From: Aquisalimonas asiatica
GTDB taxonomy: Bacteria; Pseudomonadota; Gammaproteobacteria; Nitrococcales; Aquisalimonadaceae
DNA length: 32,000 nt
Reading direction: 5' to 3'
Assembly (NCBI RefSeq): GCF_900110585.1
Contig: NZ_FOEG01000001.1
Span: 219,338-251,337 of the forward strand
The notes under the pieces are model-generated. The model saw only the letters and a list, made by a program, of their open reading frames with translations. It was not told the origin of the DNA and ran no database searches. Position 1 is the first letter of the stretch. Each line of letters begins with the position of its first letter. Shown here piece by piece: positions 8,622-27,058 of this stretch. The translations under genes were made by a program, and so were the position numbers.

Positions 8622-8623
8622 GC

Positions 8624-11955: not shown

Positions 11956-13578
11956 TTACTGGTTCATGGGCGTGCGGAAGTGCTCGTCGAGGCGCTCCAC
12001 TTCGGTGTCGATGTCTTCGTCCGGCTCCACGTCGCTGCTCTCCAGGCGGTGTTGCGCCGTCGGCAGCCGGATCTCGAACTCCACGCCGTTGATATTGAGC
12101 GGCTCGATGCTGACCCGGTGCGCCTTGCGCCTGGGGGCGTAGTCCAGCCGCCAGTGCGGGCGCTCCGGGTGCGCAGGGTCGAAGTGGCGCTGCTTGCCGC
12201 TGGCGGCGAAGTCGTCCAGGCGCTGGGTGTCGTCACTGTCCTCCGGGGTGATCTCCACGCTTTTCAGTGGAGACGTGAACGTCCACTCCCGGGCGCCGTC
12301 GGGCTCGCCGTCGTGGGTGGTGGTGTCCAGCGTTTCGGTGATCACCTCGCCGTCGTCCAGCTCCAGCCGCACGGTATAGCGCGCGGTCGGGGTTTCGATG
12401 TTGTGCACGTCGATGCGGCCTTCGTAGCCCTTCACGATCTCGCCCACGAAGTACAGCCCCAGCCCGCGGCCGTGGTGTTCGTTGGTGCGGCGCGTGGAGT
12501 AGCCGAGCTGGAAGAGGTTGTCGCGGTCCTCGTCGCGGATGTGCGGGCCGCGGTTGTACACGCGCAGGCAGGCGTGGCCGTGTTCCTCGGTGAGGGTGAG
12601 GGCCACGGGCGCGAACGCCTTCTTGAAGCCGCGCTTGTTGGCGAAGAACTGCGCGTTCTTGAGCAGATTCTCCAGCAGCAGCACCAGGTGGTTCTCGTTG
12701 CCCAGCAGCTCGCCGGCCGGCTCCAGATGCACGGTCCACTTGCTGTCGTGCAGGGTGTAGCCGGTGTCGTCATCGGGGGCGGGCATGGTTTCGTTGCGCA
12801 CCGCGCCGAGCGCCCGCCAGGCGGCGCGCTGAGGCAGATAGGCCGGCTCGTAGGGCAGGGCGGCGTGGTGGTCACCCTGGAGCTCCCGCTGCACGTAGTG
12901 CTCCTCGCACTCGCACAGGTGGTTGCTGATGTGCAGGGCGAGGTTGTCGGCGGTGGAGAGGTCCAGCAGGTCCCAGAGATAGCGCATGGCGTCCAGGGCG
13001 GCTTCGTACTCCGCCTGCCGGGCGGCGGCGTCCGGGGTGTCGCCGCCGGTTGCGTCCAGCGCCGCGCGGTTGGCGGCGGCTGCATGCTGCAGGGCCGTCT
13101 GCACCTTGTCGAAGCTGATCACGCCGTTGTGGCGCACTTCCGCGGCGATGCTCTTGAAGTGCAGAAACTTCTCGTCGTACTCGATGTACTCCAGCAGCTT
13201 GTCGCTGATGAACAGCTTCAGTTTGTCTGCGTGGCCGGAGTAGGTGTGCGCCTTCATCTGCAGCTGCTTCTTGCGCTCCCACAGCGCGTCGAGCTGGTGG
13301 TTGAGGTGCAGCAGATCGGCCTTCTGGCCGGCGTACTGGCGCCGGTAGCGGCGCAGATCGAGGAGCAGCAACAGAATGAACCCGCCCAGCGCTCCGTAGG
13401 CGGCATCCAGCCGCAGCCATTCGCGCGGGATGTCGTAGTAGGTGGCGAGCCAGGGCTCGTTCACCGCCAGCAGGTAGGCGAGCGCAAGAAGGGCGCCCAA
13501 GGCGCTCAGCCACGGGAAAGTGACCTTGGTGATCCGCGTGGTCGGGCGGCTGATGTCGGCGTCGTCGGTGTCGGTCAT
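11956..13578 (-). CDS. Atypical membrane-anchored sensor histidine kinase (GHKL ATPase), 540 aa
   Basis: It has two N-terminal TM helices with almost no periplasmic loop. The N-box is LLENLLKNAQFF and the G2 box is GRGLGLYF, but the G1 position reads YNRGPH instead of DxGxG. About 100-130 extra acidic residues lie near the C-terminus. The start overlaps the response-regulator stop (ATGA). Confidence 0.8.
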   Translation of the reverse strand: MTDTDDADISRPTTRITKVTFPWLSALGALLALAYLLAVNEPWLATYYDIPREWLRLDAAYGALGGFILLLLLDLRRYRRQYAGQKADLLHLNHQLDALWERKKQLQMKAHTYSGHADKLKLFISDKLLEYIEYDEKFLHFKSIAAEVRHNGVISFDKVQTALQHAAAANRAALDATGGDTPDAAARQAEYEAALDAMRYLWDLLDLSTADNLALHISNHLCECEEHYVQRELQGDHHAALPYEPAYLPQRAAWRALGAVRNETMPAPDDDTGYTLHDSKWTVHLEPAGELLGNENHLVLLLENLLKNAQFFANKRGFKKAFAPVALTLTEEHGHACLRVYNRGPHIRDEDRDNLFQLGYSTRRTNEHHGRGLGLYFVGEIVKGYEGRIDVHNIETPTARYTVRLELDDGEVITETLDTTTHDGEPDGAREWTFTSPLKSVEITPEDSDDTQRLDDFAASGKQRHFDPAHPERPHWRLDYAPRRKAHRVSIEPLNINGVEFEIRLPTAQHRLESSDVEPDEDIDTEVERLDEHFRTPMNQ

Positions 13579-14384
13579 GTCTCGGCTCCCTTGACCGGCC
13601 GCCAGCAGTAGGCGCCTTCGTCGCCGAAGGTGACGATCCCTTCGCCGCCGTCGCAGATGGCCTGGAAACGGCCGTCACCGCCCATGGCCTGGTCGAACGC
13701 GCGGCGCAGGGTGCGGATGTGCTGGCGGTAGCTGGCGTAGGAGAAGCGGGCCGTGTCGGTATCCAGATGCTCCGCCATCTGCTCGGTGGTCACGGCGCGG
13801 GGCGAGGCCTCCACCAGATAGCGCAGGATCTTGCGCGGCATGGGCGCGAGCGGGCGTTTCGCATTGGCCGGGTTCATGAGCTTGCTGCCGCGCCAGTACA
13901 CCTCCCAGGTCACGGTATCCAGGGAGAGCTCGCCGCTTTGCAGCACGTCGCCGGACTGCGCCGGGCCGGGCTGGCGCATGTCGCTCTGGCGGAGCGCCGC
14001 CTTGATCCGCCAGCACAGCACCTGCTCCACGTTGCGCTGATGTTTGGCGATGAAATCCCGGGCGCCCGAGGTCTCGAACGCCTGCTCCTCGATGCCGGTG
14101 CCGCTGTGCTCGGAGAGGTAGATGATGGGCAGGTCGGGCCACTTGCGCTGCAGCGCGCGGGATACGGAAAAGCCGGCGGCGTCGTTGCCGTTCATGTTCG
14201 CGTCCAGCAGGGCGAGATCCGGTGCGCCGTCGTCGCCCACCTGGCGGATGTGCTGGCAGGCGGCCTCCGCGAACTTGAACACCTGCACCTCGGTCGGCGC
14301 GGCGTCAAACGCCGTCTCCTCCAGCACCGGCCGGAATCGCTCGATCCAGTGCAGCTGGTCTTCCACCCACAGAATCACCGCCAT
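13575..14384 (-). CDS. OmpR-family response regulator (REC plus winged-helix), 269 aa
   Basis: REC motifs are present: ILWVEDQ, LALLDANM and FIAKH. The C-terminal segment LSLDTVTWEVYWRGSKL...PMPRKILRYLV...HIRTLRRAF is Trans_reg_C-like. The start was chosen at ATG 14384. Confidence 0.85.
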   Translation of the reverse strand: MAVILWVEDQLHWIERFRPVLEETAFDAAPTEVQVFKFAEAACQHIRQVGDDGAPDLALLDANMNGNDAAGFSVSRALQRKWPDLPIIYLSEHSGTGIEEQAFETSGARDFIAKHQRNVEQVLCWRIKAALRQSDMRQPGPAQSGDVLQSGELSLDTVTWEVYWRGSKLMNPANAKRPLAPMPRKILRYLVEASPRAVTTEQMAEHLDTDTARFSYASYRQHIRTLRRAFDQAMGGDGRFQAICDGGEGIVTFGDEGAYCWRPVKGAET

Positions 14385-14481
14385 GGCGCGCCCGTACTCC
14401 CTTGGCAACAGCCCCGCAACGTAGCACGCCGGCAACACCGCCAGACGTGACGGCCATCAACCCTCGCGCATCCCATTCCCG

Positions 14482-14507
14482 GTGAACAGTGTTCACGGAT
14501 TTTTCAC
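14482..14507. promoter_or_regulatory. Candidate response-regulator operator in the divergent promoter region
   Basis: There is a perfect 15-bp palindrome GTGAACAGTGTTCAC (14482-14496). A third TTCAC half-site at 14503-14507 lies 11 bp (one helical turn) after the TTCAC at 14492-14496. Confidence 0.3.
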
Positions 14508-14588
14508 CAGCGCGCGGGAGACTCCACTCAACGCTGAAGACGGGCCCGCCCGTCAGGGGCGCCACTACAACAACCATACAGGCACAGG

Positions 14589-16112
14589 GTGATCATCATG
14601 TTGGCTGACATACTCTACATCTGGTCGGATTCGCCGGGGCTGTCACTGGCCATCTGGCTCGTGATCGGCATAACCGTGTTGTACCTGGGGCGCCCCCACG
14701 CCCACCACGTGCTGCGTGGAACCGGGCGGGCCATCGACGGCGCCCTGCGACTGGCCGCCGCCAGCCTGCGGCAGCTCGAGAAGCGGGTGGCGAAGCGCAA
14801 CCGCGACGTGCTCCTGGCCGTGGGCCGGGAAGAGGCCGAGAAGGCCATCGAGCGGGAGTTCACCCGCGTCAACGCCATCGTCGAGCGCGAGCTCAGCCAC
14901 TACCCGGCGCTGCACCGCAAGCTCGCCGAGACCATCGAGAAGATCGAGGGCGACTACCAGGCCTCCACCGATCAGGCGCCGTTGCCGCCGGACTGGTCCG
15001 AGCTCACGTCTACCATCTCCTCGCTGCCCAGCTCCGGCGATCCGGCCGTGGGCAAGATCCTGGAGAACATTCGCGAGGCCGTGGAGAACTCCCACAAGGA
15101 GACGCTCAAGGCCTACCAGAAGAGCGTGAACGAGCGCCACAAGATCCTGCACGGCATGCAGGGCGACTGGCGCACGGTGAGCACCACCATGGACAAGGTG
15201 CAGACCACCATCACCGGCCTGGAAGAGCGCGCCGCGGCCATCGACCGCCACATGGCCAACTACGAGGCAATGCGCCGGGAAGACGACAAGGCCGTGCACG
15301 CGCTCACGGCGTCGTCGGTGACGCAGTTCTTCATCGCCTCCCTGGTGCTGGTGATCGCCGCCTTCGGCGGCCTCATCAACTTCCACCTGATCGCGCTGCC
15401 CATGTCCGAGATGGTGGGCGGGGCGGCCTACATCGGCTCCATGCGCGTGTCCGACATCGCCGCGCTGGTGATCATCATGGTGGAGATCTCCATGGGGATA
15501 TTCCTGCTGGAGGCGCTGCAGATCACCAAGCTGTTCCCCATGATCGGCCGCATGGACGACCGCATGCGCAAGCGCATGGCCATCGCCGCGTTCACCATCC
15601 TGTTCATCTTCGCCAGCATCGAGGCCTCGCTCGCCTACATGCGGGACCTGCTGGTGATGGATCAGCAGGCGCTGACCCAGTCCCTCGCGGGCGGTGCGGC
15701 TGCCGAGGCGCAGTTCCGCTGGATTCCGTCGGTGGCGCAGCTTCTGCTCGGGTTCATCCTGCCGTTCGCGCTGGCCTTCGTCGCCATCCCGCTGGAGGCG
15801 TTCATCAACTCCCTCCGCACGGTCCTCGGGCTGCTGGTGCTGGGCGTGGTGCGTGTGCTGCCGGTGGTAGTGCGGCTCGCCGGCGGCGTGGCCAGCCACC
15901 TGAGCAAGGTGCTCGTGAGCCTCTACGACCTGCTGATCATGCTGCCGCTCAGCATCGAGCGGATGATCGCCCACCGCCGTGAAACCGCCCATGCGGTGGA
16001 CGAGGACGACACCGACGCGGACACCCCCGCGAAACCGAAGACCAAGCGCCGCCGCCGCGCCAGCAGCGATGCCGACACGGACGACACCCAGCTCACCGAA
16101 CGGGAGGCCTGA
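14589..16112 (+). CDS. Multi-pass membrane protein with a long N-terminal coiled-coil-like cytoplasmic region; function unknown
   Basis: The 507-aa ORF has coding-like composition. It has one N-terminal TM, about 200 aa of charged helical sequence, at least 5 TM segments, and a K/R- then D-rich tail. The start is GTG at 14589 or ATG at 14598. Confidence 0.75.
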   Translation: MIIMLADILYIWSDSPGLSLAIWLVIGITVLYLGRPHAHHVLRGTGRAIDGALRLAAASLRQLEKRVAKRNRDVLLAVGREEAEKAIEREFTRVNAIVERELSHYPALHRKLAETIEKIEGDYQASTDQAPLPPDWSELTSTISSLPSSGDPAVGKILENIREAVENSHKETLKAYQKSVNERHKILHGMQGDWRTVSTTMDKVQTTITGLEERAAAIDRHMANYEAMRREDDKAVHALTASSVTQFFIASLVLVIAAFGGLINFHLIALPMSEMVGGAAYIGSMRVSDIAALVIIMVEISMGIFLLEALQITKLFPMIGRMDDRMRKRMAIAAFTILFIFASIEASLAYMRDLLVMDQQALTQSLAGGAAAEAQFRWIPSVAQLLLGFILPFALAFVAIPLEAFINSLRTVLGLLVLGVVRVLPVVVRLAGGVASHLSKVLVSLYDLLIMLPLSIERMIAHRRETAHAVDEDDTDADTPAKPKTKRRRRASSDADTDDTQLTEREA

Positions 16113-16115
16113 GCC

Positions 16116-16835
16116 ATGCTGACCAACACCAACCAGACGCAGACCGCATCCACCACCCGGCCCAACGCCCGCCGCACGCGGCGGGGCCTGGCCCTGGCCT
16201 TCTGTGCCGCCGTCGCCACCGCGCTGAGCGGCTGCGGCGACCCGGCCAACAACAGCCGCGCCGCCTTCGTGCTGGTGGATATCTCCGAGAACTACGCCAG
16301 CGAGATGGAGAAGGCCCGCACGCTCACCAACCACCTGCTCGCGCAGATGGAGAGCGGCGATTCCCTGGCCATCGGCTTCATCGATAACAGCAGCTACTCC
16401 GAGCGCAACATCATCGCCAGCGCCGAGTTCGACCACCGGCCGAGCGTCGCTACCCAGCAGAAGCGGGAAGTGCGCGCCGACCTGGATGCCTTCCTGGAGC
16501 GCTTCCGCGTGCCCAGTGCGCACAGCGACATCACCGGCGGCGTGTTCCTGGCGCGGGACTTCCTCAACGAGGCCAACGCCGGCGAGCGTCAGCTCTACAT
16601 GGTCTCCGACCTGAACGAAGACCTCATGCCCGACCTCAAGCGCGACATCCCCCTGAACCTCAAGGGTGTCGACGTGGTGGCCGTGAACGTCACCCGCATG
16701 AGCGGCGACAACCACGACCCGCGCGCCTACGAGCGTCGCCTCGCCGACTGGCAGGAGCGCATCGAGTCCGGCGGCGGCCAGTGGCGCGTGGCCAACAACC
16801 TGGCACGGCTCGAGGTCGTGACCGCACAACAGTAA
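16116..16835 (+). CDS. Lipoprotein with a VWA-like (variant MIDAS) fold
   Basis: The lipobox is LSGC. FVLVDISEN, SDITGG and YMVSDLNED are spaced like VWA MIDAS elements. GGGAGG lies 8 nt upstream, and the start is 3 nt after the upstream stop. Confidence 0.7.
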   Translation: MLTNTNQTQTASTTRPNARRTRRGLALAFCAAVATALSGCGDPANNSRAAFVLVDISENYASEMEKARTLTNHLLAQMESGDSLAIGFIDNSSYSERNIIASAEFDHRPSVATQQKREVRADLDAFLERFRVPSAHSDITGGVFLARDFLNEANAGERQLYMVSDLNEDLMPDLKRDIPLNLKGVDVVAVNVTRMSGDNHDPRAYERRLADWQERIESGGGQWRVANNLARLEVVTAQQ

Positions 16836-16852
16836 GCAACAGTGGCGAGGCT

Positions 16853-17566
16853 ATGAGCGCACGCAACTACCTCCTGGTCCCAGGCGCCTGGACGGGCGCC
16901 TGGGTCTGGCATTACGTCGAACAGGCGCTGCGCGCACGGAGGCAGAACGCACGCTCCATGACACTCTCCGGCCTGGAAACGCTGGATGGCGACGTCTCCG
17001 CCATCCGGCTCAGCACCCATGTGCAGGAGGTGATGCAGTACATCCACGAGCGCGACCTGCAGGACGTGATCCTCGTGGGCCACGGCTACGGCGGGTTGGT
17101 GATCGGCCAGGTGGCCGACCTCCAGCGCGAGCGCATCGCCCACACCGTGTACGTGGACGCCAGCCTCCCGCGCGACAGGCACTCCATGGTCGACACCATC
17201 GGCCTCGACCCCGCGCACGAAGCCCGGCGCATCAGCGCCAACAACGGCCGCTGGCCCGCACCGGACGCGGAGGCCCTGCAGCAGGAGGCGGGCCTCTCCA
17301 CGGAGCACGCCCGGTTCCTCAGCGAACGGCTCGTGGGCCACCCGGGCCACGCCGTCACCGACCCGGCCGTGCTCGACCGGCCCCTGCACCATCAGGCCGG
17401 GACGGTCATCACCAGCGACACCGCAACCACGCCGGACCACCCCAACCACTGGCGCACCTACCACCTGGACGCCGGCCCCTGGCCCATGCTCTCAGCCCCG
17501 CTGGAGCTAACCTCCCTCCTCACACACCGCAGTGCCGGGCCGGAAGCCGCCTGCAAAGCAGGGTAG
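16853..17566 (+). CDS. Alpha/beta hydrolase (SABP2/methylesterase-like) lacking the nucleophile serine
   Basis: YLLVPGAWTGAWVW and ILVGHGYGG align with the HGxxHGxWxW and VGHSxGG motifs of the family. The nucleophile codon is GGC (Gly) at 17084-17086. Confidence 0.75.
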   Translation: MSARNYLLVPGAWTGAWVWHYVEQALRARRQNARSMTLSGLETLDGDVSAIRLSTHVQEVMQYIHERDLQDVILVGHGYGGLVIGQVADLQRERIAHTVYVDASLPRDRHSMVDTIGLDPAHEARRISANNGRWPAPDAEALQQEAGLSTEHARFLSERLVGHPGHAVTDPAVLDRPLHHQAGTVITSDTATTPDHPNHWRTYHLDAGPWPMLSAPLELTSLLTHRSAGPEAACKAG

Positions 17567-17798
17567 GCCCCGGCGCAAAGCAGCCTCCAAAACACCTGTT
17601 TGGCCCATGGTGCATTCTCCGGTAATGTCTCCAATAGGCAACGCTGGCGGGGCTCGCCATGGAAGCCATTACAAACAGGGGTGAGCCCCGGCTCGTGAAT
17701 AAGAATATTCGGTGGACGACCCTACCTATCCCTACAAGAGTGCGCGAACTGATCATGTCATCGAAAGCTGACAGACAGGAGCAAAACAACATGGTATT

Positions 17799-17862
17799 AC
17801 TGCGAAGCAGCCGCGACTGCGACATAACGAAGTTGATGTCGCAGTCGCGGCTGCTTCGCAGT
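17799..17862. repeat. Perfect 27-bp-stem hairpin with a 10-nt loop
   Basis: ACTGCGAAGCAGCCGCGACTGCGACAT (17799-17825) is the exact reverse complement of 17836-17862. The loop is AACGAAGTTG. Confidence 0.9.
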
Positions 17863-17924
17863 GTCGGTGCTTTTCTCCGCTGTCGTCTTCCGAGCCAAGA
17901 TGGATTGGCTCAAGGATAATTTTG

Positions 17925-18054
17925 GCCTAACTAGCCGTTCGAGCACCACGCCTCGTAGATGGCATTTTGAAGGTGTACCCCGAGGGGCGATTTTGTTGCT
18001 TTTTTTGGTGAGTACTGGAATACGGGCGCGTTGCTCAACTTGCTTACGTTATGC
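17925..18054 (+). repeat. attC-like site 0
   Basis: R'' is GCCTAAC (17925-17931), a perfect RYYYAAC. L'' 17937-17952 pairs with L' 18025-18039 at 13 of 15 positions with one bulged C (17940). R' is GTTATGC (18048-18054). Confidence 0.6.
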
Positions 18055-18086
18055 GCTGGTACGTAATTTGATCTGGAGTCCTGCGG

Positions 18087-18827
18087 ATGGAAGAGATGTT
18101 GAGGACGATTGATAAAAGGCGGGCCCTAGAACTTGAGTTGATACCGGCGCGGCTCGCAAACGTAGTTCGTGTTAAACACGGGTTGCTCGATGGAAACACT
18201 CGTTCAGACTTGGAGGCCGCACAGCACTTGGGGTTAAGCGAGGCCAGCTTTAAGGGGCTCCTGTACGAGGCTTACTCCCAGATCAGGGCCCTTCAAGGAG
18301 TACTACCAGTCCCAGAACTTGAGCGCCGACCTCCTACGAAGGTGTTTGTTTCGTACTCGTGGGACTCCGAAGAACACAAAGCCTGGGTCAGATGGGTTTC
18401 TGAGCGGCTTGTATTTAATGGTCTGCAGGTTCTGCTAGACCAATGGGATATGCACCCTGGCGTAAGTTTCACACAGTTTATGGAGCAGAGTATTGCGAAC
18501 GCGGACTTTGTCTTATGCGTTTTTACGCCCTCTTATGCGGAAAAGGCGAACAATAGGCAGAGTATTTCCGGTACGGGCTACGAGCAGCAAATCGTTTCAG
18601 GGCAGATAATGTCCGGAGCACCTAGGTCCAAGTTTGTTCCGATACTTAGAGCGGGAACCTATCAAGCGGGTAGGGAGTGCGCTATACCAACCCATTTTAT
18701 GGGGGTTGTGTGTGAAGATTTTAGAAGTGACGAGGATTTTGAGGTTTCTTTAGAATCCTTGCTCAGGATGCTTTATGGCAAGCCGAAATACATGCCTCCC
18801 CAGATAGGTGTCGAGCCAACACTTTAG
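18087..18827 (+). CDS. Sigma-70 region-4-like HTH fused to a TIR/SEFIR-superfamily domain, 246 aa
   Basis: The N-terminal segment LIPARLANVVRVKHGLLDGNTRSDLEAAQHLGLSEASFKGLLYEAYSQIRAL aligns with the sigma70 r4 pattern. The C-terminal segment KVFVSYSWDSEEHKAWVRWVSERLVFNGLQVLLDQWDMHPG...ADFVLCVFTPSYAEKA...GYEQQ is a typical bacterial TIR/SEFIR core with a candidate catalytic Glu. GGAG lies 8 nt upstream of the ATG. Confidence 0.85.
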   Translation: MEEMLRTIDKRRALELELIPARLANVVRVKHGLLDGNTRSDLEAAQHLGLSEASFKGLLYEAYSQIRALQGVLPVPELERRPPTKVFVSYSWDSEEHKAWVRWVSERLVFNGLQVLLDQWDMHPGVSFTQFMEQSIANADFVLCVFTPSYAEKANNRQSISGTGYEQQIVSGQIMSGAPRSKFVPILRAGTYQAGRECAIPTHFMGVVCEDFRSDEDFEVSLESLLRMLYGKPKYMPPQIGVEPTL

Positions 18828-18907
18828 CATAACAACAACATCGAGTCCGACGGCTCACCCTTACGCTGCGCGCCAGGGCAAGCCGCGGCTCATGTGGAGC
18901 GTTATGG
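18827..18907 (+). repeat. attC site 1 (81 bp)
   Basis: R'' GCATAAC starts on the last base of the TAG stop. L'' 18838-18854 pairs 14/14 with L' 18882-18895, leaving three single-base bulges, all on the L'' side. R' is GTTATGG (18901-18907). R'' is the exact reverse complement of GTTATGC at the cassette start (18048-18054). Confidence 0.75.
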
Positions 18908-18945
18908 CGCTTGGGATAGTCAGCAGATGAGATGAGGAGGCGAAA

Positions 18946-19164
18946 ATGCACAGATTCATTATCAACAAGAATCAGCAGGCCAATGGCGATCACGAGGTTC
19001 ACAATGCGACCACGGATTGTTCATATATGCCGAATCCTGAGAACCGAATAGACATGGGCTATCACGCGTCATGCCATGGGGCGGTTGCTGAGGCTAAACG
19101 CCGCTGGCCAGGGAACAGAATTAACGGCTGCTACTATTGTGCTAATGCATGTCATACAAGCTAG
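18946..19164 (+). CDS. Small Cys/His-rich protein (putative metal-binding), 72 aa, function unknown
   Basis: A strong SD (GAGGAGG) lies 6 nt upstream. The motifs are GDHEVH...C...C-H...GCYYCANACH. I recognise it only as a recurrent small hypothetical family. Confidence 0.75.
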   Translation: MHRFIINKNQQANGDHEVHNATTDCSYMPNPENRIDMGYHASCHGAVAEAKRRWPGNRINGCYYCANACHTS

Positions 19165-19166
19165 CA

Positions 19167-19314
19167 CCATAACAAGGCAATCAAGTTCGCTCCCTGCGGT
19201 CGCCGGATGACCTTGCCCGGCTGCCTTCGGGAAACTGGCCGCATGAACGTGTCCAATTCAGCCGGGCAAGGTCACTGGCGCTCCAATGCCGGCCGGTTAA
19301 GCTGAGCGTTAGAA
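19167..19314 (+). repeat. attC-like site 2 (long; 3' boundary ambiguous)
   Basis: R'' CCATAAC (19167-19173) is the exact reverse complement of GTTATGG at the cassette start. There is a central perfect 16-bp stem (19208-19223 / 19259-19274). R' candidates are GTTAAGC (19296-19302) and GTTAGAA (19308-19314). The L''/L' pairing is weak. Confidence 0.45.
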
Positions 19315-19352
19315 ATATGGACGTGCATCAGTTCTAATTCCTAGAAATATTA

Positions 19353-19382
19353 TTAATTTGTGGTGTGAGGTTGACCTATAAT
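19353..19382 (+). promoter_or_regulatory. Possible cassette-internal promoter
   Basis: A consensus -10 TATAAT lies at 19377-19382, about 50 nt upstream of the 19433 ATG. Only a weak -35 (TTAATT, about 18 nt upstream) is present; the TTGACC at 19371-19376 is too close to serve as -35. Confidence 0.2.
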
Positions 19383-19432
19383 TCTTGCGTCTTAGTGAGT
19401 GATTTGAGAGATAGAATTTTCGATGGTGGCGT

Positions 19433-20377
19433 ATGAATAATATTGATTGGTTGACTGTTGTTCCCTCTGCGATGTCTGCAATAGCCGCAGTTGCTGCCGC
19501 TTATGCTGCATTTGTCGCACTCCGTGTTAGCCGGAAAGCGAACTATTTGTCTGAGAAAAGTATATTAGCAGCTCATCATAGTGATGCCGCATGTGTGCTT
19601 TCAAGTTCAATTGATAGGCTCAAAAAAGAAACAAAAGATTTATCGGAATGTTCATATCGATTATGGGTAGATTGGTCTAGAGAGATTGAATCAAAAGACG
19701 ATCGCCGAAATGGAGGGTCAAATCCTAGACCTTTACGGCATGTTCTGACAAATGGGAGTGAAATGCTAGTGGCGCATGGCACGCTAAATGGAAAACGGTA
19801 TAGGCATGCGCAACGATCAATGTTCTCTATTGTTAGAGATGGCGTAAGCGGGTTAGATGGTAATGAATACAACGGGTTACTCCAAAAGGCGGACGGCACA
19901 TATGGTGATTTTGAAAGCACTTTTGGTTTGCCGCCGATAAATCGAAAAATCGGTGAAGCAAAAGCCTTTAGATGGGTTCTTTATCAGTTAGCAAGGAGGG
20001 TTAATCACAATGATTGGCTTGAAATCTGGAAAAGAGCGTGGCTAGATGATGGCTGGATTGTCAAATACCGACGTGAATTTTCGAAAGTGAAACCAGTTCT
20101 GGAAGAAGTGCATGACTCGCTGAAAGTGGAAAAAAAGAAAGTGACTTACAGCGTGATTCCTCTGGAGTCCAACGCCATGCTGCATAGAAAATATGAAATG
20201 CTATTATCAGAAGTGGAGATTCTTCTGGATGATTGCAGTTTGGATTCATTGGAGATATATCGCGATTGGGAATATGCCGAAGATGTTAGTCAATTGGTTC
20301 TCTATTCGATGGGGGTGGCGAATTTGGTGGGGAAGATTTTAGATTCGATCTATTCGGGAAGTGATCTGGATAGGTGA
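19433..20377 (+). CDS. Membrane-anchored protein (one N-terminal TM helix), 314 aa, no recognisable domain
   Basis: It is the only long ORF in an AT-rich stretch, which makes a spurious ORF unlikely. The TM helix is VVPSAMSAIAAVAAAYAAFVAL, and the remainder is hydrophilic and K/E/D/W-rich. Confidence 0.75.
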   Translation: MNNIDWLTVVPSAMSAIAAVAAAYAAFVALRVSRKANYLSEKSILAAHHSDAACVLSSSIDRLKKETKDLSECSYRLWVDWSREIESKDDRRNGGSNPRPLRHVLTNGSEMLVAHGTLNGKRYRHAQRSMFSIVRDGVSGLDGNEYNGLLQKADGTYGDFESTFGLPPINRKIGEAKAFRWVLYQLARRVNHNDWLEIWKRAWLDDGWIVKYRREFSKVKPVLEEVHDSLKVEKKKVTYSVIPLESNAMLHRKYEMLLSEVEILLDDCSLDSLEIYRDWEYAEDVSQLVLYSMGVANLVGKILDSIYSGSDLDR

Positions 20378-20378
20378 T

Positions 20379-20531
20379 TTCTAGTAAGCGCACGTTTTCG
20401 GAATGGTTTTTAGATGTGATATTGCCCAGAGAAATTGGGCACATTCATATGGCCAGGTTCCCAAAGCCGGCCGGCAAAGGCAGGCGAGATCAGGGTGGAG
20501 GCTGAGCAGCAAAAGAAAGCCTTGGTTAGGA
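20379..20531 (+). repeat. Degenerate attC-like site 3
   Basis: TTCTAGT (20379-20385), 1 nt after the stop, matches 5 of 7 positions of TTCTAAC, the complement expected from cassette start GTTAGAA. The right arm shares GCCGGCCGG...GCTGAGC...GTTAG(G/A)A with attC-2. R' is GTTAGGA at 20525-20531. Confidence 0.3.
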
Positions 20532-20965
20532 AAGGTGGCGTGAAGAAGAAGTAAGGGAAAAGATACTGAGTGCGTGGTTCGAGCCGCGCACATATGAGTA
20601 CGTACCTGTCAGCGCATTCGTGGGTTTCGAAAAGCAGGCCCGGCTAAACAGAGAATTGGTTTTTGCACTTGATCGTCGAGGTGACGGGCATCGGGTAGAG
20701 AATTCGGCGTTGGGCGCGCTCCCACAGATTGAGCGATTGTGCCAGAGCCTTTCTGAGATAGGGCGCTTCACGCAAGTAGTCAAACACGGAGGTTGTGATC
20801 GAGGCATCTACATCTAGATGTGGAGTCTTGGTTTCCTTGCCACGGAATCTGTGCACTGGGACGCAATTGCTACCAGTGGCTTCAAGGCGGCGTCATTCCT
20901 GATTTGCCCCAAGGTGGGTCAATTAGGCTTGTCCGTTGATGTTGGTTCTGTTTGGGAGGGATATA

Positions 20966-21274
20966 ATGAAAGCATCGGTTTTTCTCGTTCTGTTGTTGAG
21001 TTTTCTGTTTATTGGTCCAGCCAACGGGGGCGATCTTAAGTCAGTATCTGCAGCTGGAGGACTAGAAGAAGTCGGTTTGCTAGAAATTACGGCCCCGACT
21101 GTCGACAGTCCCTGTGCTGGCGAAGAGATTAGCGATTCCGTCCTGTTTGAAGGCGACCAGTTGTTAGCACAGCGCTGCTGCAGGATATGTAGAAGGGGTA
21201 AGGCTTGCGGGGATACTTGCATCAACCGCAACTACACTTGCACGCGACCGCCCGGTTGTGCGTGTAATGGCTGA
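20966..21274 (+). CDS. Small secreted Cys-rich protein, 102 aa
   Basis: GGGAGGG lies 6 nt upstream of ATG 20966. The signal peptide is MKASVFLVLLLSFLFIGPANG. The C-terminus CCRICRRGKACGDTCINRNYTCTRPPGCAC has 9 Cys in 30 aa. Confidence 0.7.
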   Translation: MKASVFLVLLLSFLFIGPANGGDLKSVSAAGGLEEVGLLEITAPTVDSPCAGEEISDSVLFEGDQLLAQRCCRICRRGKACGDTCINRNYTCTRPPGCACNG

Positions 21275-21393
21275 CTTAGCGCTCGGGTAATGTGGTATCT
21301 ACGGGAGTGAACGGATTCGCTCCTCGTTTAGTAGCCTGCCGATCTACGTTTTTTCCGTGTGTCATCAAGGACTCCTCCACGCAGCCTTCCTGG

Positions 21394-22575
21394 TCAGTTC
21401 TGCCCCAACCCCAACAACTTCGGCCGCTCCCCCTGCGTCTGCCAGCGCCACAGCCACTCCAGCGGGCCCTGCCGGAATACCGCCAGCCACAGGGCGCTGA
21501 ACAGCAGTTGGGCGAGGAAGACGCCGCCGGCGATGGTCACCGCGGTGGTCAGCGAGATTTCGGCGAAGAGGTTCAGGCCGAAGCCGTAGAAGAGCGGCAC
21601 ACAGATCACGGACTGGCCGACGTAGTTGGTCAGCGCCATGCGTCCGGCCGGGGCCATGAACGCACGGGTTGCCCGGGCGAGGATGTTGCCGCTGTAGCCC
21701 CAGAAGAGGAGCAGCAGGCCGGCGTAGCCGATGGCCATCAGCGGCGGCGAGGCGATCTCGGCGGCGATCTGCCCCGGGTGCTCGGGTGCCAGATTGGCGA
21801 TCATGCCGTGCTCCACCAGGGCGAGCGGGAATCCGATGGCAAGGCCGGCCAGGGCGGTTGCGAGCAGCGGCCAGCGGTACGTGCCGATGGACTCCACCAG
21901 CTGCATCCGCGCGGCGGCCGCGCCCAGCAGGAACAGCGCCATCACCTTCACTCCCCGCAGTGACTCCAGCCGCTCCAGCGCCGTGGCGACGCTCAGCTCC
22001 ACGTTGGCCTTGACCACATCGACGAAGCTGCCCCCGGAGAGGTGGTGGATGTTATCCCCCAGCCGGTGGGCGCCCATGGTCTCGTACGGGCCGGGGATGT
22101 CCAGGCCGAGCCAGTACCACCGCGCCGCGATGGTGGCACCAAGCAGTGCGACGCCCCAGAGAATGAGCGTCAGCGGCCGGCAGTTGAGGAATGGGGTGAG
22201 CAGGAACCCGACCAGCGCGTAGAGGGTCAGTATGTCCCAGGGCCAGAAGAGCACGCTGTGGGCGGCGCCGAACGCCAGCAGCCCGATCATGCGGCGGCGG
22301 TGGAACGCCGGGCCGCCAGCGCCCATGCGGCTGGCGAGCATCACGAAGCTGTAGCCGAACAGCAGTGAGAACAGGCCGTAGAACTTGCCCTCGAAGAAGA
22401 GGTGCATGATGGCCTCGGTGAGCGGGTCGTTGCCCGCGCCGGGCAGGGCCTCCCGTTCGCCGGGGCCGAGGTAGCCCCAGCCGGAGAACATCTGGATGTT
22501 CACCACGAGGATGCCCAGCAGGGCGAATCCGCGCAGTGCATCCAGCGAAGCGAGGCGTTCGCTCTGACGGCCCAT
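21394..22575 (-). CDS. DUF418/YeiB-like multi-pass membrane protein
   Basis: The N-terminus RLASLDALRGFALLGILVVN is characteristic of the DUF418/DUF1624 family. The protein has about 10 TM segments. Confidence 0.8.
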   Translation of the reverse strand: MGRQSERLASLDALRGFALLGILVVNIQMFSGWGYLGPGEREALPGAGNDPLTEAIMHLFFEGKFYGLFSLLFGYSFVMLASRMGAGGPAFHRRRMIGLLAFGAAHSVLFWPWDILTLYALVGFLLTPFLNCRPLTLILWGVALLGATIAARWYWLGLDIPGPYETMGAHRLGDNIHHLSGGSFVDVVKANVELSVATALERLESLRGVKVMALFLLGAAAARMQLVESIGTYRWPLLATALAGLAIGFPLALVEHGMIANLAPEHPGQIAAEIASPPLMAIGYAGLLLLFWGYSGNILARATRAFMAPAGRMALTNYVGQSVICVPLFYGFGLNLFAEISLTTAVTIAGGVFLAQLLFSALWLAVFRQGPLEWLWRWQTQGERPKLLGLGQN

Positions 22576-22628
22576 GCATTACACCCTTTGATACTGTATG
22601 CACCCGCTCACACGGAGAAGGCACAACG

Positions 22629-23675
22629 ATGAATGGAAAATGGAGTTGGCTGACAGGCCTGGGCGTGGCGACCGCGATCACGTTGACTGCGACGGCCGTC
22701 ATGCCGGTTCTGGCGGACAGTGGTGACAGCGCAATGCGAGACCAGATTAAAGCCATTGATGAGCGTATGCCAGGCCAGTTCGGTGTTTACATCAAGCGGC
22801 CGGCCACGGGCGAAGCGATCGACTACCAGGCGGACCGCGACTGGTATCTGGCCTCGACCATCAAGATCCCGTTGGCCGTGGCGGTGATGCAGCGCGCCGA
22901 GGAGGGCGAGCTGTCGCTGGATGACGAGCTGGAGCTGGCGGAATCCGACTACGTGGACGGGGCCGGCGAGCTGCTGGCTGCCGAGCCGGGCACGCGCTAC
23001 AGCCTGGAGGAGCTGATCGGCCATTCCATCCGCGACAGCGACAGCTCCTCCACGGACATGCTGATCCGGCTCCTGGGGGAGGAGTCGTTCAACGACCAGG
23101 TCAGCCGGGAGATGCCCGAGGCGCGCATGAACCCCATTACCACCATCGTGCAGGTGCGCTTCGACGCCTACGCCAATGTCCACCCGGATGCGGAGACGCT
23201 GACCAATATGGATTTCATCCGCCTGCGCTCGGCGGCGTCGCTGGATGAGCGCTACCACGCCTTTCTCGACAAGATCGGAGCGGGTGCCTCCGAGGCAAAC
23301 GCCGACAGCCTTGAAGAGGCGTTCGGACGCTACTACGAGACCGGGCTCAACTCCGGCCCCCTGACCGGCTTCGGCGCCATGCTGGAGCGCCTTTGGGAAG
23401 GCGAGCTGCTGAACGAGGACCACACCGGGCGGCTCATGGCACAGATGGAGCAGGTCACCACCGGCGACCGCCGCATCCGCGCCGGGCTCCCGGACGGCAC
23501 TCCGTATGCCCAGAAGACCGGCACCCAGATCAACCGCGCCTGCGACGTGGGTATCATCCACCCCGAGGATCCGGAGCGCACCACCATCGTGGCTGCCTGC
23601 GCCGAAGACTACGGCGATCTGCGTCACGCCGAAGAGGCCTTCCAGGCGCTGGGGCGGTTACTCGCGGAGCAGTGA
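22629..23675 (+). CDS. Class A beta-lactamase-related serine hydrolase (secreted)
   Basis: It has a signal peptide, an SxxK motif (STIK), an SDS/SDN-like motif (RDSDSS) and KTG (QKTGTQ). ATG at 22629 follows GGAGAAGG. Confidence 0.8.
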   Translation: MNGKWSWLTGLGVATAITLTATAVMPVLADSGDSAMRDQIKAIDERMPGQFGVYIKRPATGEAIDYQADRDWYLASTIKIPLAVAVMQRAEEGELSLDDELELAESDYVDGAGELLAAEPGTRYSLEELIGHSIRDSDSSSTDMLIRLLGEESFNDQVSREMPEARMNPITTIVQVRFDAYANVHPDAETLTNMDFIRLRSAASLDERYHAFLDKIGAGASEANADSLEEAFGRYYETGLNSGPLTGFGAMLERLWEGELLNEDHTGRLMAQMEQVTTGDRRIRAGLPDGTPYAQKTGTQINRACDVGIIHPEDPERTTIVAACAEDYGDLRHAEEAFQALGRLLAEQ

Positions 23676-23727
23676 ACGCGGTGCGCGGAGCGCCGCTTGC
23701 GCCACAGGCGGACGTCTCGGCCTGGAT

Positions 23728-23756
23728 GGTGCCCCGGGGTGTGGCCCGGGGGCACC
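23728..23756. terminator. GC-rich hairpin between convergent genes
   Basis: GGTGCCCC (23728-23735) pairs with GGGGCACC (23749-23756), plus 3 further bp after a bulge. There is no U-tract. Confidence 0.25.
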
Positions 23757-23770
23757 GCGGGCAATCGCGC

Positions 23771-24607
23771 TCATGCCGGGCGGCTTGCGCCAGCCTGGTA
23801 GGGCGGGTTGGTGACATGCAGCTCGGCATTGGTTGTGGCGAGGGCGTCGAGAAACGCTTGCTCCACAGGGGCGTCGGTAAAGATGTGGTCGAGGGCGTCC
23901 AGGGGGCTTACCAGTTCAAGTTTCGGGCGGCGGAACTTGTCGTGGTCAACGAGTAGGCTGGTGCGGCGGGCGCGGGTGAACATCACGCGTTTGACGGCCG
24001 CCAGGTCGCTGTTCACTTCAGTGGGGCCCTCGATGGAAAGCGCGCTGCAGCTTGAGAAACAGTGGTCGGCGACGAAGCGGCGCAGGAACTCGGTGGTCTC
24101 GCTGCCGTAATTGGCGCCTTCGCTGCTCTTGTACTGGCCTCCGGCCACGGTTATGTCGAACGTGGGGTTCCTGGTCATGATGTTGGCGATGGGAAAGCTG
24201 TTGGTGATGATCTTCAGGTCCTGGCGCTCGACCACCAGGTGGTGCGCCAGGGGGAAGCAGGTCGCGCAGGAGTCGAACATCAGCACCTGACCATCGCGGA
24301 CGAGGGCGGTCGCGGCCTCGGCGATGCGCTGCCGCGCTTCCGGATGCTGGGTGGCGCGTTGGTTGATGGCGGGCTCGCTGGCCGTGTTGAGTGCCGTCGC
24401 ACCGCCATAGGTGCGCTCCAGGAGCTCAGCTTCCGCCATGGCGTCGATGTCGCGTCGCGCCGTCTCCACCGAGACGTTGAACTGGCTGGCCAGGTCGGAG
24501 ATGAGGACGACGGGCCGGGATTCCAGCATGCTCTGGATGATGGTCCAGCGCTCCTTCTGCGTGAGACGCTTTCTTGTGGATGCGCGGGCGCCGGCGACGT
24601 CGTTCAT
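23771..24607 (-). CDS. DeoR/GlpR-family transcriptional regulator
   Basis: The N-terminal HTH is RWTIIQSMLESRPVVLISDLASQFNVSVETARRDIDAM, followed by a DeoR C-terminal sensor-like domain. The start overlaps the eutC stop by 4 nt. Confidence 0.85.
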   Translation of the reverse strand: MNDVAGARASTRKRLTQKERWTIIQSMLESRPVVLISDLASQFNVSVETARRDIDAMAEAELLERTYGGATALNTASEPAINQRATQHPEARQRIAEAATALVRDGQVLMFDSCATCFPLAHHLVVERQDLKIITNSFPIANIMTRNPTFDITVAGGQYKSSEGANYGSETTEFLRRFVADHCFSSCSALSIEGPTEVNSDLAAVKRVMFTRARRTSLLVDHDKFRRPKLELVSPLDALDHIFTDAPVEQAFLDALATTNAELHVTNPPYQAGASRPA

Positions 24608-25422
24608 TCGGTCTCTCCTGTCTGTGGGCCGCGATGCGCAGGTAGCCCGGCATCGTCGGCTTCGTTTCTGTCGGCCTCAAGCGTGGTGCTCTGGTCCTTG
24701 AGGCCGACCCCGGTGAGTTGTTGTACAAGCGCATGGCGGATGAGATACGCCATGGTGTCCGTCGCGGCGTCCGGTGTCAGCCCGCCGGGGCGGATGTTGG
24801 AGATGCAGTTCCTCTCCGCGTCGTAGCGCCCCGTGCGAGGCGCGTAGGTGATATACACGCCAAGACTGTCGGCAGCAGACAGGCCCGGTCGTTCCCCGAT
24901 GATCACCACGCTCAGGCGCGCCCCCAGGTGCTCACCGATGGGGTCACCGATCGCGACGCGCCCTTGTTCCACCAGGATGACCGGGGACAGGCGCCAGCCG
25001 GCGTGCTCTGCACGCTGGGCAAAGGTCGCAATGAGCTCGCTTGCGTGCTCGGCGACGGCCGTCCCCGACAGGCCGTCGGCCACGATCAGGGCGATGTCCG
25101 GCTGCGTGTCGCGAAGGGGCTCCAGCGCCGCGGCACCAGCCTCGCTCAGGCGTCGGCCCAGATCGGGCCGGCGCAGGTAGGTGGCCCGTGAGTCCGCGGC
25201 GCTTGCGACCTGTAGCGTGTCGAAGCCCGCGGTCGTGAGGGCGTCGGCCAGTGCGTCGAAGTCGACCTGGAAGTGGACGGCGTCTCTGGCTTTGGCCCAG
25301 TCGAACTGGAACGCCAGCAACTCGTTCGTGGTCAGGCTGCTGCCGGTGGCCTCCAGGGCCACGCGGGCGGCCGTGAGGTCGCGCAGGCGGCGATACGCAT
25401 TCGGGATGGTGTTCTCGGTCAT
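24604..25422 (-). CDS. eutC: Ethanolamine ammonia-lyase small subunit
   Basis: The length is right, and the motifs LRDLTAARVALEATGSSLTTNELLAFQFDWAKARDAV and VIIGERPGLS are typical of EutC. It lies immediately downstream of eutB. Confidence 0.9.
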   Translation of the reverse strand: MTENTIPNAYRRLRDLTAARVALEATGSSLTTNELLAFQFDWAKARDAVHFQVDFDALADALTTAGFDTLQVASAADSRATYLRRPDLGRRLSEAGAAALEPLRDTQPDIALIVADGLSGTAVAEHASELIATFAQRAEHAGWRLSPVILVEQGRVAIGDPIGEHLGARLSVVIIGERPGLSAADSLGVYITYAPRTGRYDAERNCISNIRPGGLTPDAATDTMAYLIRHALVQQLTGVGLKDQSTTLEADRNEADDAGLPAHRGPQTGETE

Positions 25423-25426
25423 GCCA

Positions 25427-26836
25427 TCAGCTCCTGGTTCCGGTGTGGTGAGCGAGCACGTTGGCGTTGGCCAGAAGCGGCTGGTCCGCCCCCGGGGGCA
25501 GCAGTTGGTTGCGCTCGTCCATGATGTTCATGGTCTGGAGCCAGGCGTTGAACTCCGGCGATGGCGTCTTGCCCAGGAGTTGCCGCACGTAGTTGGCGTC
25601 ATGGAAGGAGGTGCTCTGGTAGCTCAGCATGATGTCGTCTGCGCCCGGCACGCCCATGACGAAGTTGCAGCCCGCCGTGCCGAGTAGCGTCAGCAGCACG
25701 TCCATGTCGTCCTGATCGGCTTCCGCGTGGTTCGTGTAGCACACGTCGCAGCCCATGGGCACACCCAGCATCTTGCCGCAGAAGTGGTCTTCCAGGCCGG
25801 CGCGGATGATCTGTTTGCCGTCGTACAGGTACTCGGGGCCAATGAAGCCGACCACGGTGTTGACCAGTAACGGGTCGAACGCCCTGGCAACGGCGTGGGC
25901 CCGGGCTTCACAGGTCAGCTGGTCGATGCCGTGGTGCGCGTCGGCGGACAGGGCGCTGCCCTGGCCGGTCTCGAAGTACATCAGGTTCTCGCCGACGGTG
26001 CCGCGCTCAAGGGAGCGTCCCGCCTCGTGGGCCTCTTTCAGCAGGGCGAGATCAATCCCGAAGGCCGTGTTGGCGGCTTGCGTGCCGGCGATGGACTGGA
26101 AGATGAGGTCCACGGGGGCATTGCGCTCAATGGCCTGAATGGCCGTGGTCACGTGCGCCAGCACGCACGACTGCATCGGGATGGCGTAGGCCTGGCGCAG
26201 ATCATCCATGAGCCGGGTGAGGTCGATGTAGGCCTGGACGCTGTCCGTCGCGGGGTTGATGCCCACGGTGGCATCCCCGGCGCCGTTCAGCAGCCCGTCG
26301 AGCATGGACGCCGCGATGCCCCGCGGGTCGTCCGTGGGGTGGTTTGGCTGCAGCCGGACCGAGAGCGTCTCCGGGGCGCCGATGGTGTTGCGGAAGCGGG
26401 TTTCCACGCGGGCCTTGCTCGCCACGAGGATCAGGTCCTGGTTGCGCATGAGCTTCGACACGGCGGCGACCATCTCAGGCGTGAGCCCCGGTGCGAGGCG
26501 GGCGAGTGTGGTGGTGTCCACATCATAACGGAGCAGCCAGTTGCGGAACTCGCCCACGGTCATGTGCGCCACCGGGGTGAACGCCTCCCGGTCGTGGGTA
26601 TCGAGAATCAGGCGGGTGACCTCGTCGTCCTCGTAGGGGATGACCGGGTCCTCGAGGAACTGCTTGAGGGGGACGTCGGCAAGCGCGGCGCGTGCGGCGA
26701 TTCGCTCCTGGGCGCTTGTGGCCGCGATTCCCGCGAGCTGGTCACCGGAGCGTTCCGGGCTCGCCTTGGCCAACAGGTCGGCGAGCCCGTTGAACGTGTG
26801 GTTATGACCACCCAGTGAGATGCGAAATACGGACAT
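25427..26836 (-). CDS. eutB: Ethanolamine ammonia-lyase large subunit
   Basis: The protein is 469 aa. The motifs SPERSGDQLAGIAA, VGINPATDS and MGCDVCYTNHA are typical of EutB. Confidence 0.9.
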   Translation of the reverse strand: MSVFRISLGGHNHTFNGLADLLAKASPERSGDQLAGIAATSAQERIAARAALADVPLKQFLEDPVIPYEDDEVTRLILDTHDREAFTPVAHMTVGEFRNWLLRYDVDTTTLARLAPGLTPEMVAAVSKLMRNQDLILVASKARVETRFRNTIGAPETLSVRLQPNHPTDDPRGIAASMLDGLLNGAGDATVGINPATDSVQAYIDLTRLMDDLRQAYAIPMQSCVLAHVTTAIQAIERNAPVDLIFQSIAGTQAANTAFGIDLALLKEAHEAGRSLERGTVGENLMYFETGQGSALSADAHHGIDQLTCEARAHAVARAFDPLLVNTVVGFIGPEYLYDGKQIIRAGLEDHFCGKMLGVPMGCDVCYTNHAEADQDDMDVLLTLLGTAGCNFVMGVPGADDIMLSYQSTSFHDANYVRQLLGKTPSPEFNAWLQTMNIMDERNQLLPPGADQPLLANANVLAHHTGTRS

Positions 26837-27058
26837 GGGCCGCTCCTTCGTTCGGGATGAACCGGTTCAGAGTATGTAATAGCAAATGTGGTGCCAGCTG
26901 ACAGTATTCGCGGCGCCCAAGGGCACGGCTGCCGGCGCTGGTCTGATAAGCCTCTGAAAGCAAAAGGGCTCCGTCGTGCGTCGGGCGGATCGTCGCGGTG
27001 GCGGTGGGGCGCTGCCCCCGGTGTCGATGGCCCGGTTGGAAGAGGATTGCGCACCCAA

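Follow-up and report, generated by a model that had tools for sequence, protein, structure and literature searches.

The chromosome of Aquisalimonas asiatica harbors, between the genes for an alpha/beta hydrolase and a DUF418 membrane protein, a 3.8-kb island of low G+C content that is very likely a set of clustered attC sites with no integron integrase (CALIN), that is, an integron cassette cluster without an integrase. The island is part of a 32,000-nucleotide (nt) stretch of contig NZ_FOEG01000001.1 (positions 219,338 to 251,337, forward strand), which is referred to here as the window; coordinates are window positions unless another locus is named (Table 1). Four credible open reading frames (ORFs) were identified in the island, at 18087-18827, 18946-19164, 19433-20377, and 20966-21274, all on the plus strand, as the initial annotation of this DNA had stated; in this order, they encode a 246-amino-acid (aa) protein with a SEFIR/TIR domain, a 72-aa Cys/His-rich protein, a 314-aa all-alpha protein, and a 102-aa protein. 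CALINs, a well-described type of element, have exactly this signature: short ORFs that share one orientation, are unrelated to each other, and have no integrase beside them. By definition, a CALIN contains at least two attC sites with no intI gene nearby; such clusters are common (bioRxiv 10.1101/030866) and, among the 2961 CALINs reported in RefSeq, 1362 have only two cassettes (bioRxiv 10.1101/2022.09.11.507474).

In single-stranded form, the bottom strand of an attC site folds into a hairpin made up of an R box, an unpaired spacer, and an L box with extrahelical bases, and the integron integrase (IntI) cuts this hairpin between the G and the TT of the R' core. In the sequences that separate the island ORFs, RYYYAAC...GTTRRRY pairs were seen directly after stop codons, hence the suspicion that integron attC sites are present. 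A covariance model was trained on genuine sites only, taken from plasmid-borne arrays of class 1 and class 2 integrons, namely those that follow blaVIM, aadA1, aadA2, aadB, aac(6')-31, aac(6')-IIa, estX, psp, cmlA1, qacL, gcuF, sat2, blaIMP-1, dfrA1, dfrA12, dfrA16, and blaCARB-2. In a joint MAFFT alignment of long and short sites, the L' boxes were misaligned; the model was therefore built from 12 short sites, and the rest were re-aligned to it. The first version (R1), which combined the alignment of these 12 sites with the textbook structure (7-bp R box, unpaired spacers, L box, one bulged base), recovered real sites that it had not seen (dfrA12, 38 bits; CARB-2, 34; IMP-1, 28; dfrA1, 22) and missed that of dfrA16. 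The second version (R2) was derived from 27 integron matches re-aligned to R1; covariation backs the structure of this alignment, with 90% of the cells paired, compared to 24-40% with slid partners, and changes on both sides in 10 of the 18 pairs.

When R2 was run with the filters off against both strands of the whole window, only two matches below E = 1 were obtained in the 32 kb, both on the plus strand, intergenic, and located in the island. The first of these, attC1, shows all the features of attC architecture: the boxes R'' GCATAAC, L'' ACAT[C]GAG, L' CTCATGT, and R' GTTATGG, with the G/TT crossover at 18901/18902, and a bottom strand that folds into the canonical hairpin, in which R box, spacer, and L box are all present and the L''/R'' arm bears extrahelical bases (G) (z score -4.47). 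For the island alone, the R2 E-value of this site is 3.5e-7. The second site, attC0, has canonical R and L boxes (R'' GCCTAAC, L'' GTT[C]GAGC, L' GCTCAAC, R' GTTATGC), and its bottom strand folds into an R box, a spacer, and an L box with a bulged base; what it lacks is a folded center, which is a 63-nt open loop. An independent rule-based scan, the first version of which was too loose (31 matches in the window) and was then tightened, placed attC0 (score 14) and attC1 (score 13) among its top three matches, with 0.01 and 0.04 such matches, respectively, expected per shuffled island. Another rule-based match, at 18033-18177 (score 13), overlaps the 3' end of attC0 and enters the SEFIR/TIR ORF, and was taken as a chance match. 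The two sites are on one strand, 773 nt apart, so that the island contains two attC sites within less than 4 kb, the second of which is borderline; they flank the SEFIR/TIR gene, and their G/TT crossovers bound an 853-bp cassette (18049-18901).

The stretch after the 72-aa gene is a degenerate attC site (attC2-like). By eye, it begins at its 5' end (CCATAACAAGGCAATCAAGTT) much like the blaCARB-2 attC (GGCTAACAAGGCCATCAAGTT), and the G+C content steps down from 0.54 to 0.42 exactly at this site; the L boxes are unpaired, the fold leaves the R box unpaired as well, and R2 yields no match. After the 314-aa gene, the window has TTTCTAGTAAGCGCACGTTTTCGGAATGGTTTTT, followed by unrelated sequence. 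This is the 5' part of a site that is intact in another locus (L101), where a 72-nt attC (1765-1836; TTCTAAC ... CGCTGCGCTCC ... GTTACAA) is the best R2 match in loci L101-L103 (14.4 bits), folds with a z score of -3.2, and is canonical by eye. The 88% nucleotide identity between the window and L101 ends at 20411, such that the window keeps the first ~34 nt of that attC (attC3). Neither attC2 nor attC3 has the full architecture of an attC site.

Two of the four genes could be traced as cassettes elsewhere, the SEFIR/TIR and 102-aa genes not being among those traced. The strongest case is the 72-aa gene. In total, 310 homologues were detected, of which the best 120 are all 62-96% identical and mostly exactly 72 aa long; they come from Gamma-, Beta-, Delta-, and Epsilonproteobacteria. 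His16, His19, Cys25, Cys43, Cys62, Cys65, Cys69, and His70 are (nearly) invariant in the family, and no match to a PDB sequence was found. Among 80 metagenomic loci that contain a homologue of this gene (L021-L100), R2 detected attC sites in 10, essentially all on the gene strand and with scores of up to 81 bits; in 6 of these 10 loci, no more than ~110 nt separate the end of the 72-aa gene, at its stop codon, from the start of an attC, and strong sites flank the gene in L081, L067, L087, L089, and L061. Outside the island, therefore, the 72-aa gene is strongly attested as an attC-bounded cassette. In L058, an IntI fragment (55% identical to IntI1) lies upstream of the 72-aa gene and is divergent from it. 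A divergent upstream IntI is the classical integron layout. Further, a GTTAT core precedes the ATG by 38-43 nt in close homologues and by 45 nt in the window, and similarity to the leader of the window gene is present downstream of this core and absent upstream of it. The 314-aa gene is likewise an attC-bounded cassette elsewhere: an 85%-identical homologue in L101-L103 precedes the complete attC described above, a site with a borderline model score that is canonical by eye and by its fold.

Additional observations were made on the 72-aa family. Fragments that match IntI at its N-terminus (44% identity to residues 12-91 of IntI1) occur in L044 (746-985) and L047 (692-922), downstream of the 72-aa gene and convergent with it, unlike the divergent layout of L058. 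The family is also represented on 14 plasmids, and members with 34-44% identity are found in (pro)phages of Streptococcus, Erysipelothrix, and Vibrio (phrog_4298).

A tblastn search with IntI1 against the window, which extends 17.6 kb to the left and 10.6 kb to the right of the island, and against the corresponding locus of the sister species discussed below (L005), produced no match at E ≤ 1e-3 and, at E ≤ 50, noise (E > 4); no integron-integrase gene or pseudogene lies within 10 kb of the island. None of the island ORFs that were tested belongs to a recombinase or transposase family, there is no tRNA in the window, and neither a convincing flanking direct repeat nor terminal inverted repeats are present at the island edges. 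Thus, the absence of integrase, transposase, tRNA, and direct repeats that the initial annotation had reported held in the IntI, family, tRNA, and repeat searches, and the island qualifies neither as a tRNA- or integrase-associated island nor as a prophage, an insertion sequence (IS), or a transposon. It is not a complete integron (intI plus attI plus Pc) either, and the array is directly preceded by the stop codon of the co-oriented hydrolase gene; a scan for sigma-70 promoters gave results not above the shuffled expectation. The conclusion drawn from these absences, that the usual explanations of island mobility do not apply, did not hold: the attC sites between the ORFs had been missed, and cassettes of the island are found in attC arrays elsewhere, with an IntI fragment upstream in L058.

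The island is a foreign insertion, set apart from its surroundings by its composition. Its G+C content is 0.494 (17567-21393), compared to 0.684 to the left (1-17566) and 0.662 to the right (21394-32000); along the sequence, the profile drops from 0.67-0.72 to 0.43-0.56 between ~17600 and ~21300 and then goes back up. All 500-nt windows in the island are at or below 0.538, whereas the lowest value elsewhere is 0.56. The G+C content at third codon positions is 0.38-0.55 in the four ORFs, compared to 0.82-0.94 in the neighboring genes, and 2-kb windows located mostly in the island have a tetranucleotide distance of 0.61-0.75 from the profile of the flanks, compared to 0.18-0.32 elsewhere. Within the island, the G+C content varies from unit to unit, between 0.42 and 0.54, which speaks for a CALIN. 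The drop in G+C between the stop codons of the hydrolase and DUF418 genes, both correctly named from the outset according to Pfam, had been noted from 60-nt hand counts, which are in line with the computed profile; the sliding-window and tetranucleotide analyses confirmed it, with exact edges, with the island far outside the flank distribution, and with the difference holding over the full region. That the island is a compositional fluctuation or an assembly artefact appears next to impossible. An independent short-read assembly of the same run (SRR4159326) does break in the island, between 19165 and 19430 (the ends of loci L006 and L007), as an artefact might lead one to expect; nevertheless, the two island halves are attached to the same core flanks in that assembly as well, all four ORFs have conserved homologues elsewhere, and the shift in composition spans 3.8 kb. 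The region of the break coincides with the attC2-like stretch and its 16-bp perfect inverted repeat (19208-19223 / 19259-19274).

Another line of evidence comes from the same site in a sister species. Among the species-representative genomes searched, the sole informative relative was Aquisalimonas sp. APHAB1-3 (L005), the other DUF418 matches being 47-49% identical. Homology between the two species stops at the stop codon of the hydrolase gene (17566) and restarts at that of the DUF418 gene (21394), with nucleotide identity of 93.8% in the hydrolase flank (window 17001-17562) and 95.5% in the DUF418 flank (21394-21526). The insert in L005 is 2.78 kb long, shares no sequence with the window island, and has a G+C content of 0.52-0.66, compared to 0.69-0.73 in its flanks. 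From left to right in the window orientation, it encompasses an ORF similar to TnpB/IS605-OrfB (on the opposite strand), a HigB-HigA pair, a stretch resembling the estX attC, and a YefM-YoeB pair. The attC-like stretch is close to the 3' half of the estX attC (TTACTCGCTGCGCTC...CCGGTGAGCCAAGCGTTATGA), a resemblance seen by eye only, to which the model gives no score. L005 thus holds, at the identical site, different cargo of a type common in cassette arrays, namely toxin-antitoxin pairs along with the remnant of an attC. The comparison with the closest genome that the initial annotation had proposed, therefore, favors an insertion with variable cargo: the flanks are the same, at 94-95% identity, and the 2.8-kb content differs. 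Two further features of this locus were observed (L005 coordinates 9941-10279 and 11920-12915): the DUF418 gene is cut to a 112-aa ORF, with ~300 bp matching window positions 21527-21834 missing, and the TnpB-like ORF adjoins the hydrolase stop codon. A motif, CGCTGCGC(TC), recurs in the middle of otherwise dissimilar attC sites, namely attC1 (18862-18872), the L101 site (~1800), and the L005 remnant (~10925), as well as in the estX, blaVIM, and dfrA12 attC sites.

The TnpB-like ORF at the same site of the sister species could suggest that the island is a relic of a transposon, IS, or prophage insertion from which the mobility genes were deleted, and the 27-bp perfect palindrome near the left edge as well as the presence of the 72-aa family in prophages and on plasmids are compatible with such an origin. 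We consider this highly improbable, given that the edges carry no terminal inverted or direct repeats, that no transposase, phage, or integrase similarity was detected in the island, with no PHROG signal beyond the SEFIR/TIR domain match and the 72-aa family, and that the left segment of the window shows no similarity to the TnpB region of L005.

A more serious alternative, although still an unlikely one, is that the site is a generic hypervariable islet, the content of which is swapped through homologous recombination in the flanks after transformation or transduction, so that the attC-associated genes are passengers and the integron machinery never acted here. A variable region bounded exactly by two stop codons, between flanks that are 94-95% identical, is what flank-mediated replacement gives; moreover, no attI, Pc, or intI remnant was found in the window, most of the attC sites are defective, and the ends of the island do not fall on GTT cores. 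Yet, such an islet would leave unexplained the anatomy of the region, with co-oriented single-gene units preceded by a GTTA core and followed by an attC or its remnant, the occurrence of attC material at the same site in both species, and the fact that the same genes are genuine cassettes elsewhere. The two interpretations are compatible; flank-mediated replacement concerns the exchange of the array rather than its identity.

Several points weigh against the identification of the island as a CALIN. The covariance model is our own rather than that of IntegronFinder, with 19 distinct training sequences dominated by the aadA type and a shortened calibration. Only one strongly significant attC site (attC1) is present in the window; attC0 is borderline (15 bits, an unstructured center, and a fold no better than those of shuffled sequences, z score -0.27), R2 does not match the sites that follow the 72-aa and 314-aa genes, and the R2 search of the island finds nothing attC-like after the 102-aa gene. 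The absence of IntI pertains to the 32-kb window of the genome, and no attI or Pc was identified (attI is not searchable without the cognate integrase). In the loci of the SEFIR/TIR homologues (L008, L010-L012), no significant attC was detected (E~0.7-1), and the candidates in L008 fold poorly, so the cassette status of this gene is drawn from attC0 and attC1 of the window alone. Finally, the difference in cargo between the two species could stem from homologous recombination in the flanks instead of the action of an integrase.

Table 1 Features of the island and its flanks, and two loci in which attC sites flank the 72-aa gene
Sequence	Feature	Position	Strand	Remarks
Window	Low-GC island, whole	17567-21393	+	Very likely CALIN, placed between the stop codons of two convergent genes
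Window	Alpha/beta hydrolase gene, left flank (core)	16781-17566	+	Pfam Abhydrolase_6
Window	Leading segment, which may be the body of a first, non-coding cassette with attC0 at its end	17567-17924	+	G+C 0.54
Window	27-bp perfect palindrome, 10-nt loop	17799-17862		DNA fold -39.9 kcal/mol, z score -12
Window	attC0	17925-18054	+	R2 15.2 bits, E 0.09 (window), 0.011 (island)
Window	Cassette gene 1, 246 aa, N-terminal four-helix domain and C-terminal SEFIR/TIR domain	18087-18827	+	Pfam TIR_2 1.7e-20, SEFIR 5e-11
Window	attC1, intact	18827-18907	+	R1 30.6 bits, E 2e-5, full length; R2 31.0 bits, E 2.8e-6
Window	Cassette gene 2, 72-aa Cys/His-rich protein	18946-19164	+	310 homologues; phrog_4298
Window	attC2-like, degenerate	19167-19314	+	R'' CCATAAC, R'-like GTTAAGC (19296) and GTTAGAA (19308), 16-bp perfect inner stem
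Window	Cassette gene 3, 314-aa all-alpha protein, N-terminal transmembrane helix	19433-20377	+	61 homologues, 42-85% identical
Window	attC3, truncated (5' half only)	20378-20411	+	R'' core mutated, TCTAAC to TCTAGTAAG
Window	Spacer without credible gene	20412-20965		ORFs without family match
Window	Gene 4, 102-aa protein, hydrophobic N-terminus read as signal peptide, Cys-rich C-terminus	20966-21274	+	GGGAGGG ribosome-binding site
Window	DUF418 membrane protein gene, right flank (core)	21394-22575	-	Pfam DUF418 7e-36
L081	72-aa gene	601-816		attC at 441-500 (81 bits) and 835-894 (70 bits), R2
L089	72-aa gene	1719-1934		Six attC across the locus, one after the gene at 1942-2001, R2

The product of the first cassette gene is a candidate NAD+-depleting anti-phage effector that would most likely abort phage infection as bSEFIR does. 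bSEFIR is a defense system of one protein and acts through NAD+ depletion by its N-terminal SEFIR domain, and the rule by which its members were selected requires an N-terminal SEFIR domain followed by a C-terminal region (Millman et al. 2022). The 246-aa protein matches the PADLOC bSEFIR profile with an E-value of 4e-61, covering positions 37-195 of 412. Its AlphaFold2 model (predicted local distance difference test score, pLDDT, 86.9) has four helices that form an N-terminal domain (residues 2-70) and, toward the C-terminus, a flavodoxin-like domain, for which the best PDB match in a Foldseek search is the prokaryotic SEFIR domain 5Y8E (E 4e-10, 35% identity), followed by the TIR domains of SPARTA, SARM1, and TIR-STING. 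Ser89, Tyr90, Trp92, His97, Asp118, and Glu166 are invariant across the homologues. The strong SEFIR match, the 5Y8E fold, and the conserved polar residues, including the invariant Glu166, are shared with bSEFIR; unlike in bSEFIR, the SEFIR domain is C-terminal, occupying residues ~82-245 of 246, with a helical domain of ~80 aa before it and no long C-terminal region after it. By this analogy, the protein probably works like bSEFIR, even though it falls outside the architectural rule of that family. An assignment to Thoeris finds no basis in the window: the ThsB-type matches are weak (E 0.002-0.04; ThcB4, 22 bits compared to a cut-off of 220), and there is no ThsA-like neighbor among the island ORFs. 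The loci of the full-length homologues hold toxin-antitoxin genes and short co-oriented ORFs.

None of the other three proteins (72, 314, and 102 aa) matches a Pfam, NCBIfam, or PADLOC family, and no family was found for the minus-strand ORFs of the island. The 314-aa protein is confidently modeled by AlphaFold2 (pLDDT 85.7) as all-alpha with a membrane helix at its N-terminus; the PDB search gave no match to this fold, and the search of viral contigs yielded a single distant relative. In L104 (5884-8945), a homologue of this gene is located directly downstream of a gene for a 671-aa AAA_15/AAA_21 ATPase, and another homologue is found near dynamin-like and DUF5623 genes; these neighborhoods are defense-island-like and lack a constant partner. 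The C-terminal ~35 residues of the 102-aa protein (CCRICRRGKACGDTCINRNYTCTRPPGCACNG) comprise a Cys-rich module that occurs in 1219 representative protein clusters and for which there is no Pfam family; some larger proteins contain 10-12 stretches matching this module. No similar DNA was found for the spacer between the 314-aa and 102-aa genes, and searching plasmids with the right third of the island gave no DNA match.

At the opposite end of the island, the leading segment encodes ORFs without family matches, and no similar DNA was detected in the fetched loci or in plasmids. The palindrome resides in this 358-bp segment, between the hydrolase stop codon and attC0. It matches no Rfam family, with only sub-threshold generic hairpin (miRNA) matches in a permissive Rfam search, and neither the fetched loci nor viral contigs contain a copy of it; it could act as a terminator or insulator, or be the relic of another element. 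Outside the island, a second, smaller dip in G+C content (0.57) was observed at 26750-27500, in the intergenic region that separates eutB from a divergently oriented gene for a solute-binding protein; the two weak matches of the attC model in this dip (E 1.9 and 8.6) are probably noise.

If the island is a CALIN, each unit would consist of a promoter-poor plus-strand ORF followed by an attC site, and the cassettes would have been delivered by IntI-mediated site-specific recombination, the integrase having since been lost or having acted in trans, encoded at another place in the genome or on a transient plasmid. The array appears to be decaying: attC0 seems to have lost its central stem, attC2 is non-canonical, attC3 is halved, and the last gene is followed by none. 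Likely, at most the SEFIR/TIR cassette is still excisable. Expression would probably proceed by read-through from the co-oriented hydrolase gene or from cassette-internal promoters, and the cargo appears to be adaptive and defensive rather than housekeeping.

A broader and rather doubtful possibility is that the hydrolase/DUF418 site is a conserved, integrase-less landing pad in Aquisalimonas, where cassettes are gained and lost singly through IntI acting in trans and the cargo may include two unstudied functions, a streamlined anti-phage effector combining a helical domain with SEFIR, and an ultra-conserved 72-aa Cys/His protein carried by integrons, plasmids, and prophages across phyla. The site would then exemplify, in nature, how cassettes enter and leave a CALIN or an attG-like site. 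As it stands, an orphan-looking island becomes a recognizable element, of a kind that is already known and would not surprise a specialist; for short, co-oriented, unrelated ORFs in a low-GC patch, attC sites rather than integrases are diagnostic. For integron biology, a small CALIN in an extreme halophile, together with a pair of species that differ in cargo, is a system in which the turnover of integrase-less arrays can be studied, and for the study of phage defense, the island offers a compact SEFIR/TIR variant with a new N-terminal domain, along with a very widespread 72-aa cassette protein.

Among the known systems, the insertions of single attC sites lacking integron integrases (SALINs) and the attG insertions (Loot et al., bioRxiv 10.1101/2022.09.11.507474) resemble the island in that cassettes are found in the chromosome away from an integron platform, and differ from it in that the island contains several cassettes rather than one and no attG consensus (GWT plus CRGM) can be placed at its edges; such insertions are a possible origin of small CALINs. 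Integron cassettes that encode compact defense systems have been described (Darracq et al., bioRxiv 10.1101/2024.07.02.601686; Kieffer et al., bioRxiv 10.1101/2024.07.02.601719), and SEFIR or TIR cassettes are not mentioned in the main text of either study. Unlike those integrons, the island lacks integrase, attI, and Pc, and the defense function is predicted here from sequence; like them, it has a compact, single-gene candidate system, a shortened variant of a known one, on a cassette of ~850 bp, and toxin-antitoxin cassettes are present in the sister array. The closest likeness is to CALINs: the array is small, as most CALINs are, its attC sites, two or more in number, share one strand and are separated by less than 4 kb, there is no intI in the 17.6 kb upstream and 10.6 kb downstream, and its ORFs are short, co-oriented, and mutually unrelated, with no gene of an antibiotic-resistance family among them. 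What distinguishes it from other CALINs is that all of its sites except a single, fully canonical one are decayed, that the host is a halophile with a very high G+C content, and that the array is squeezed between the stop codons of two convergent genes, at a site where the sister species has another array.

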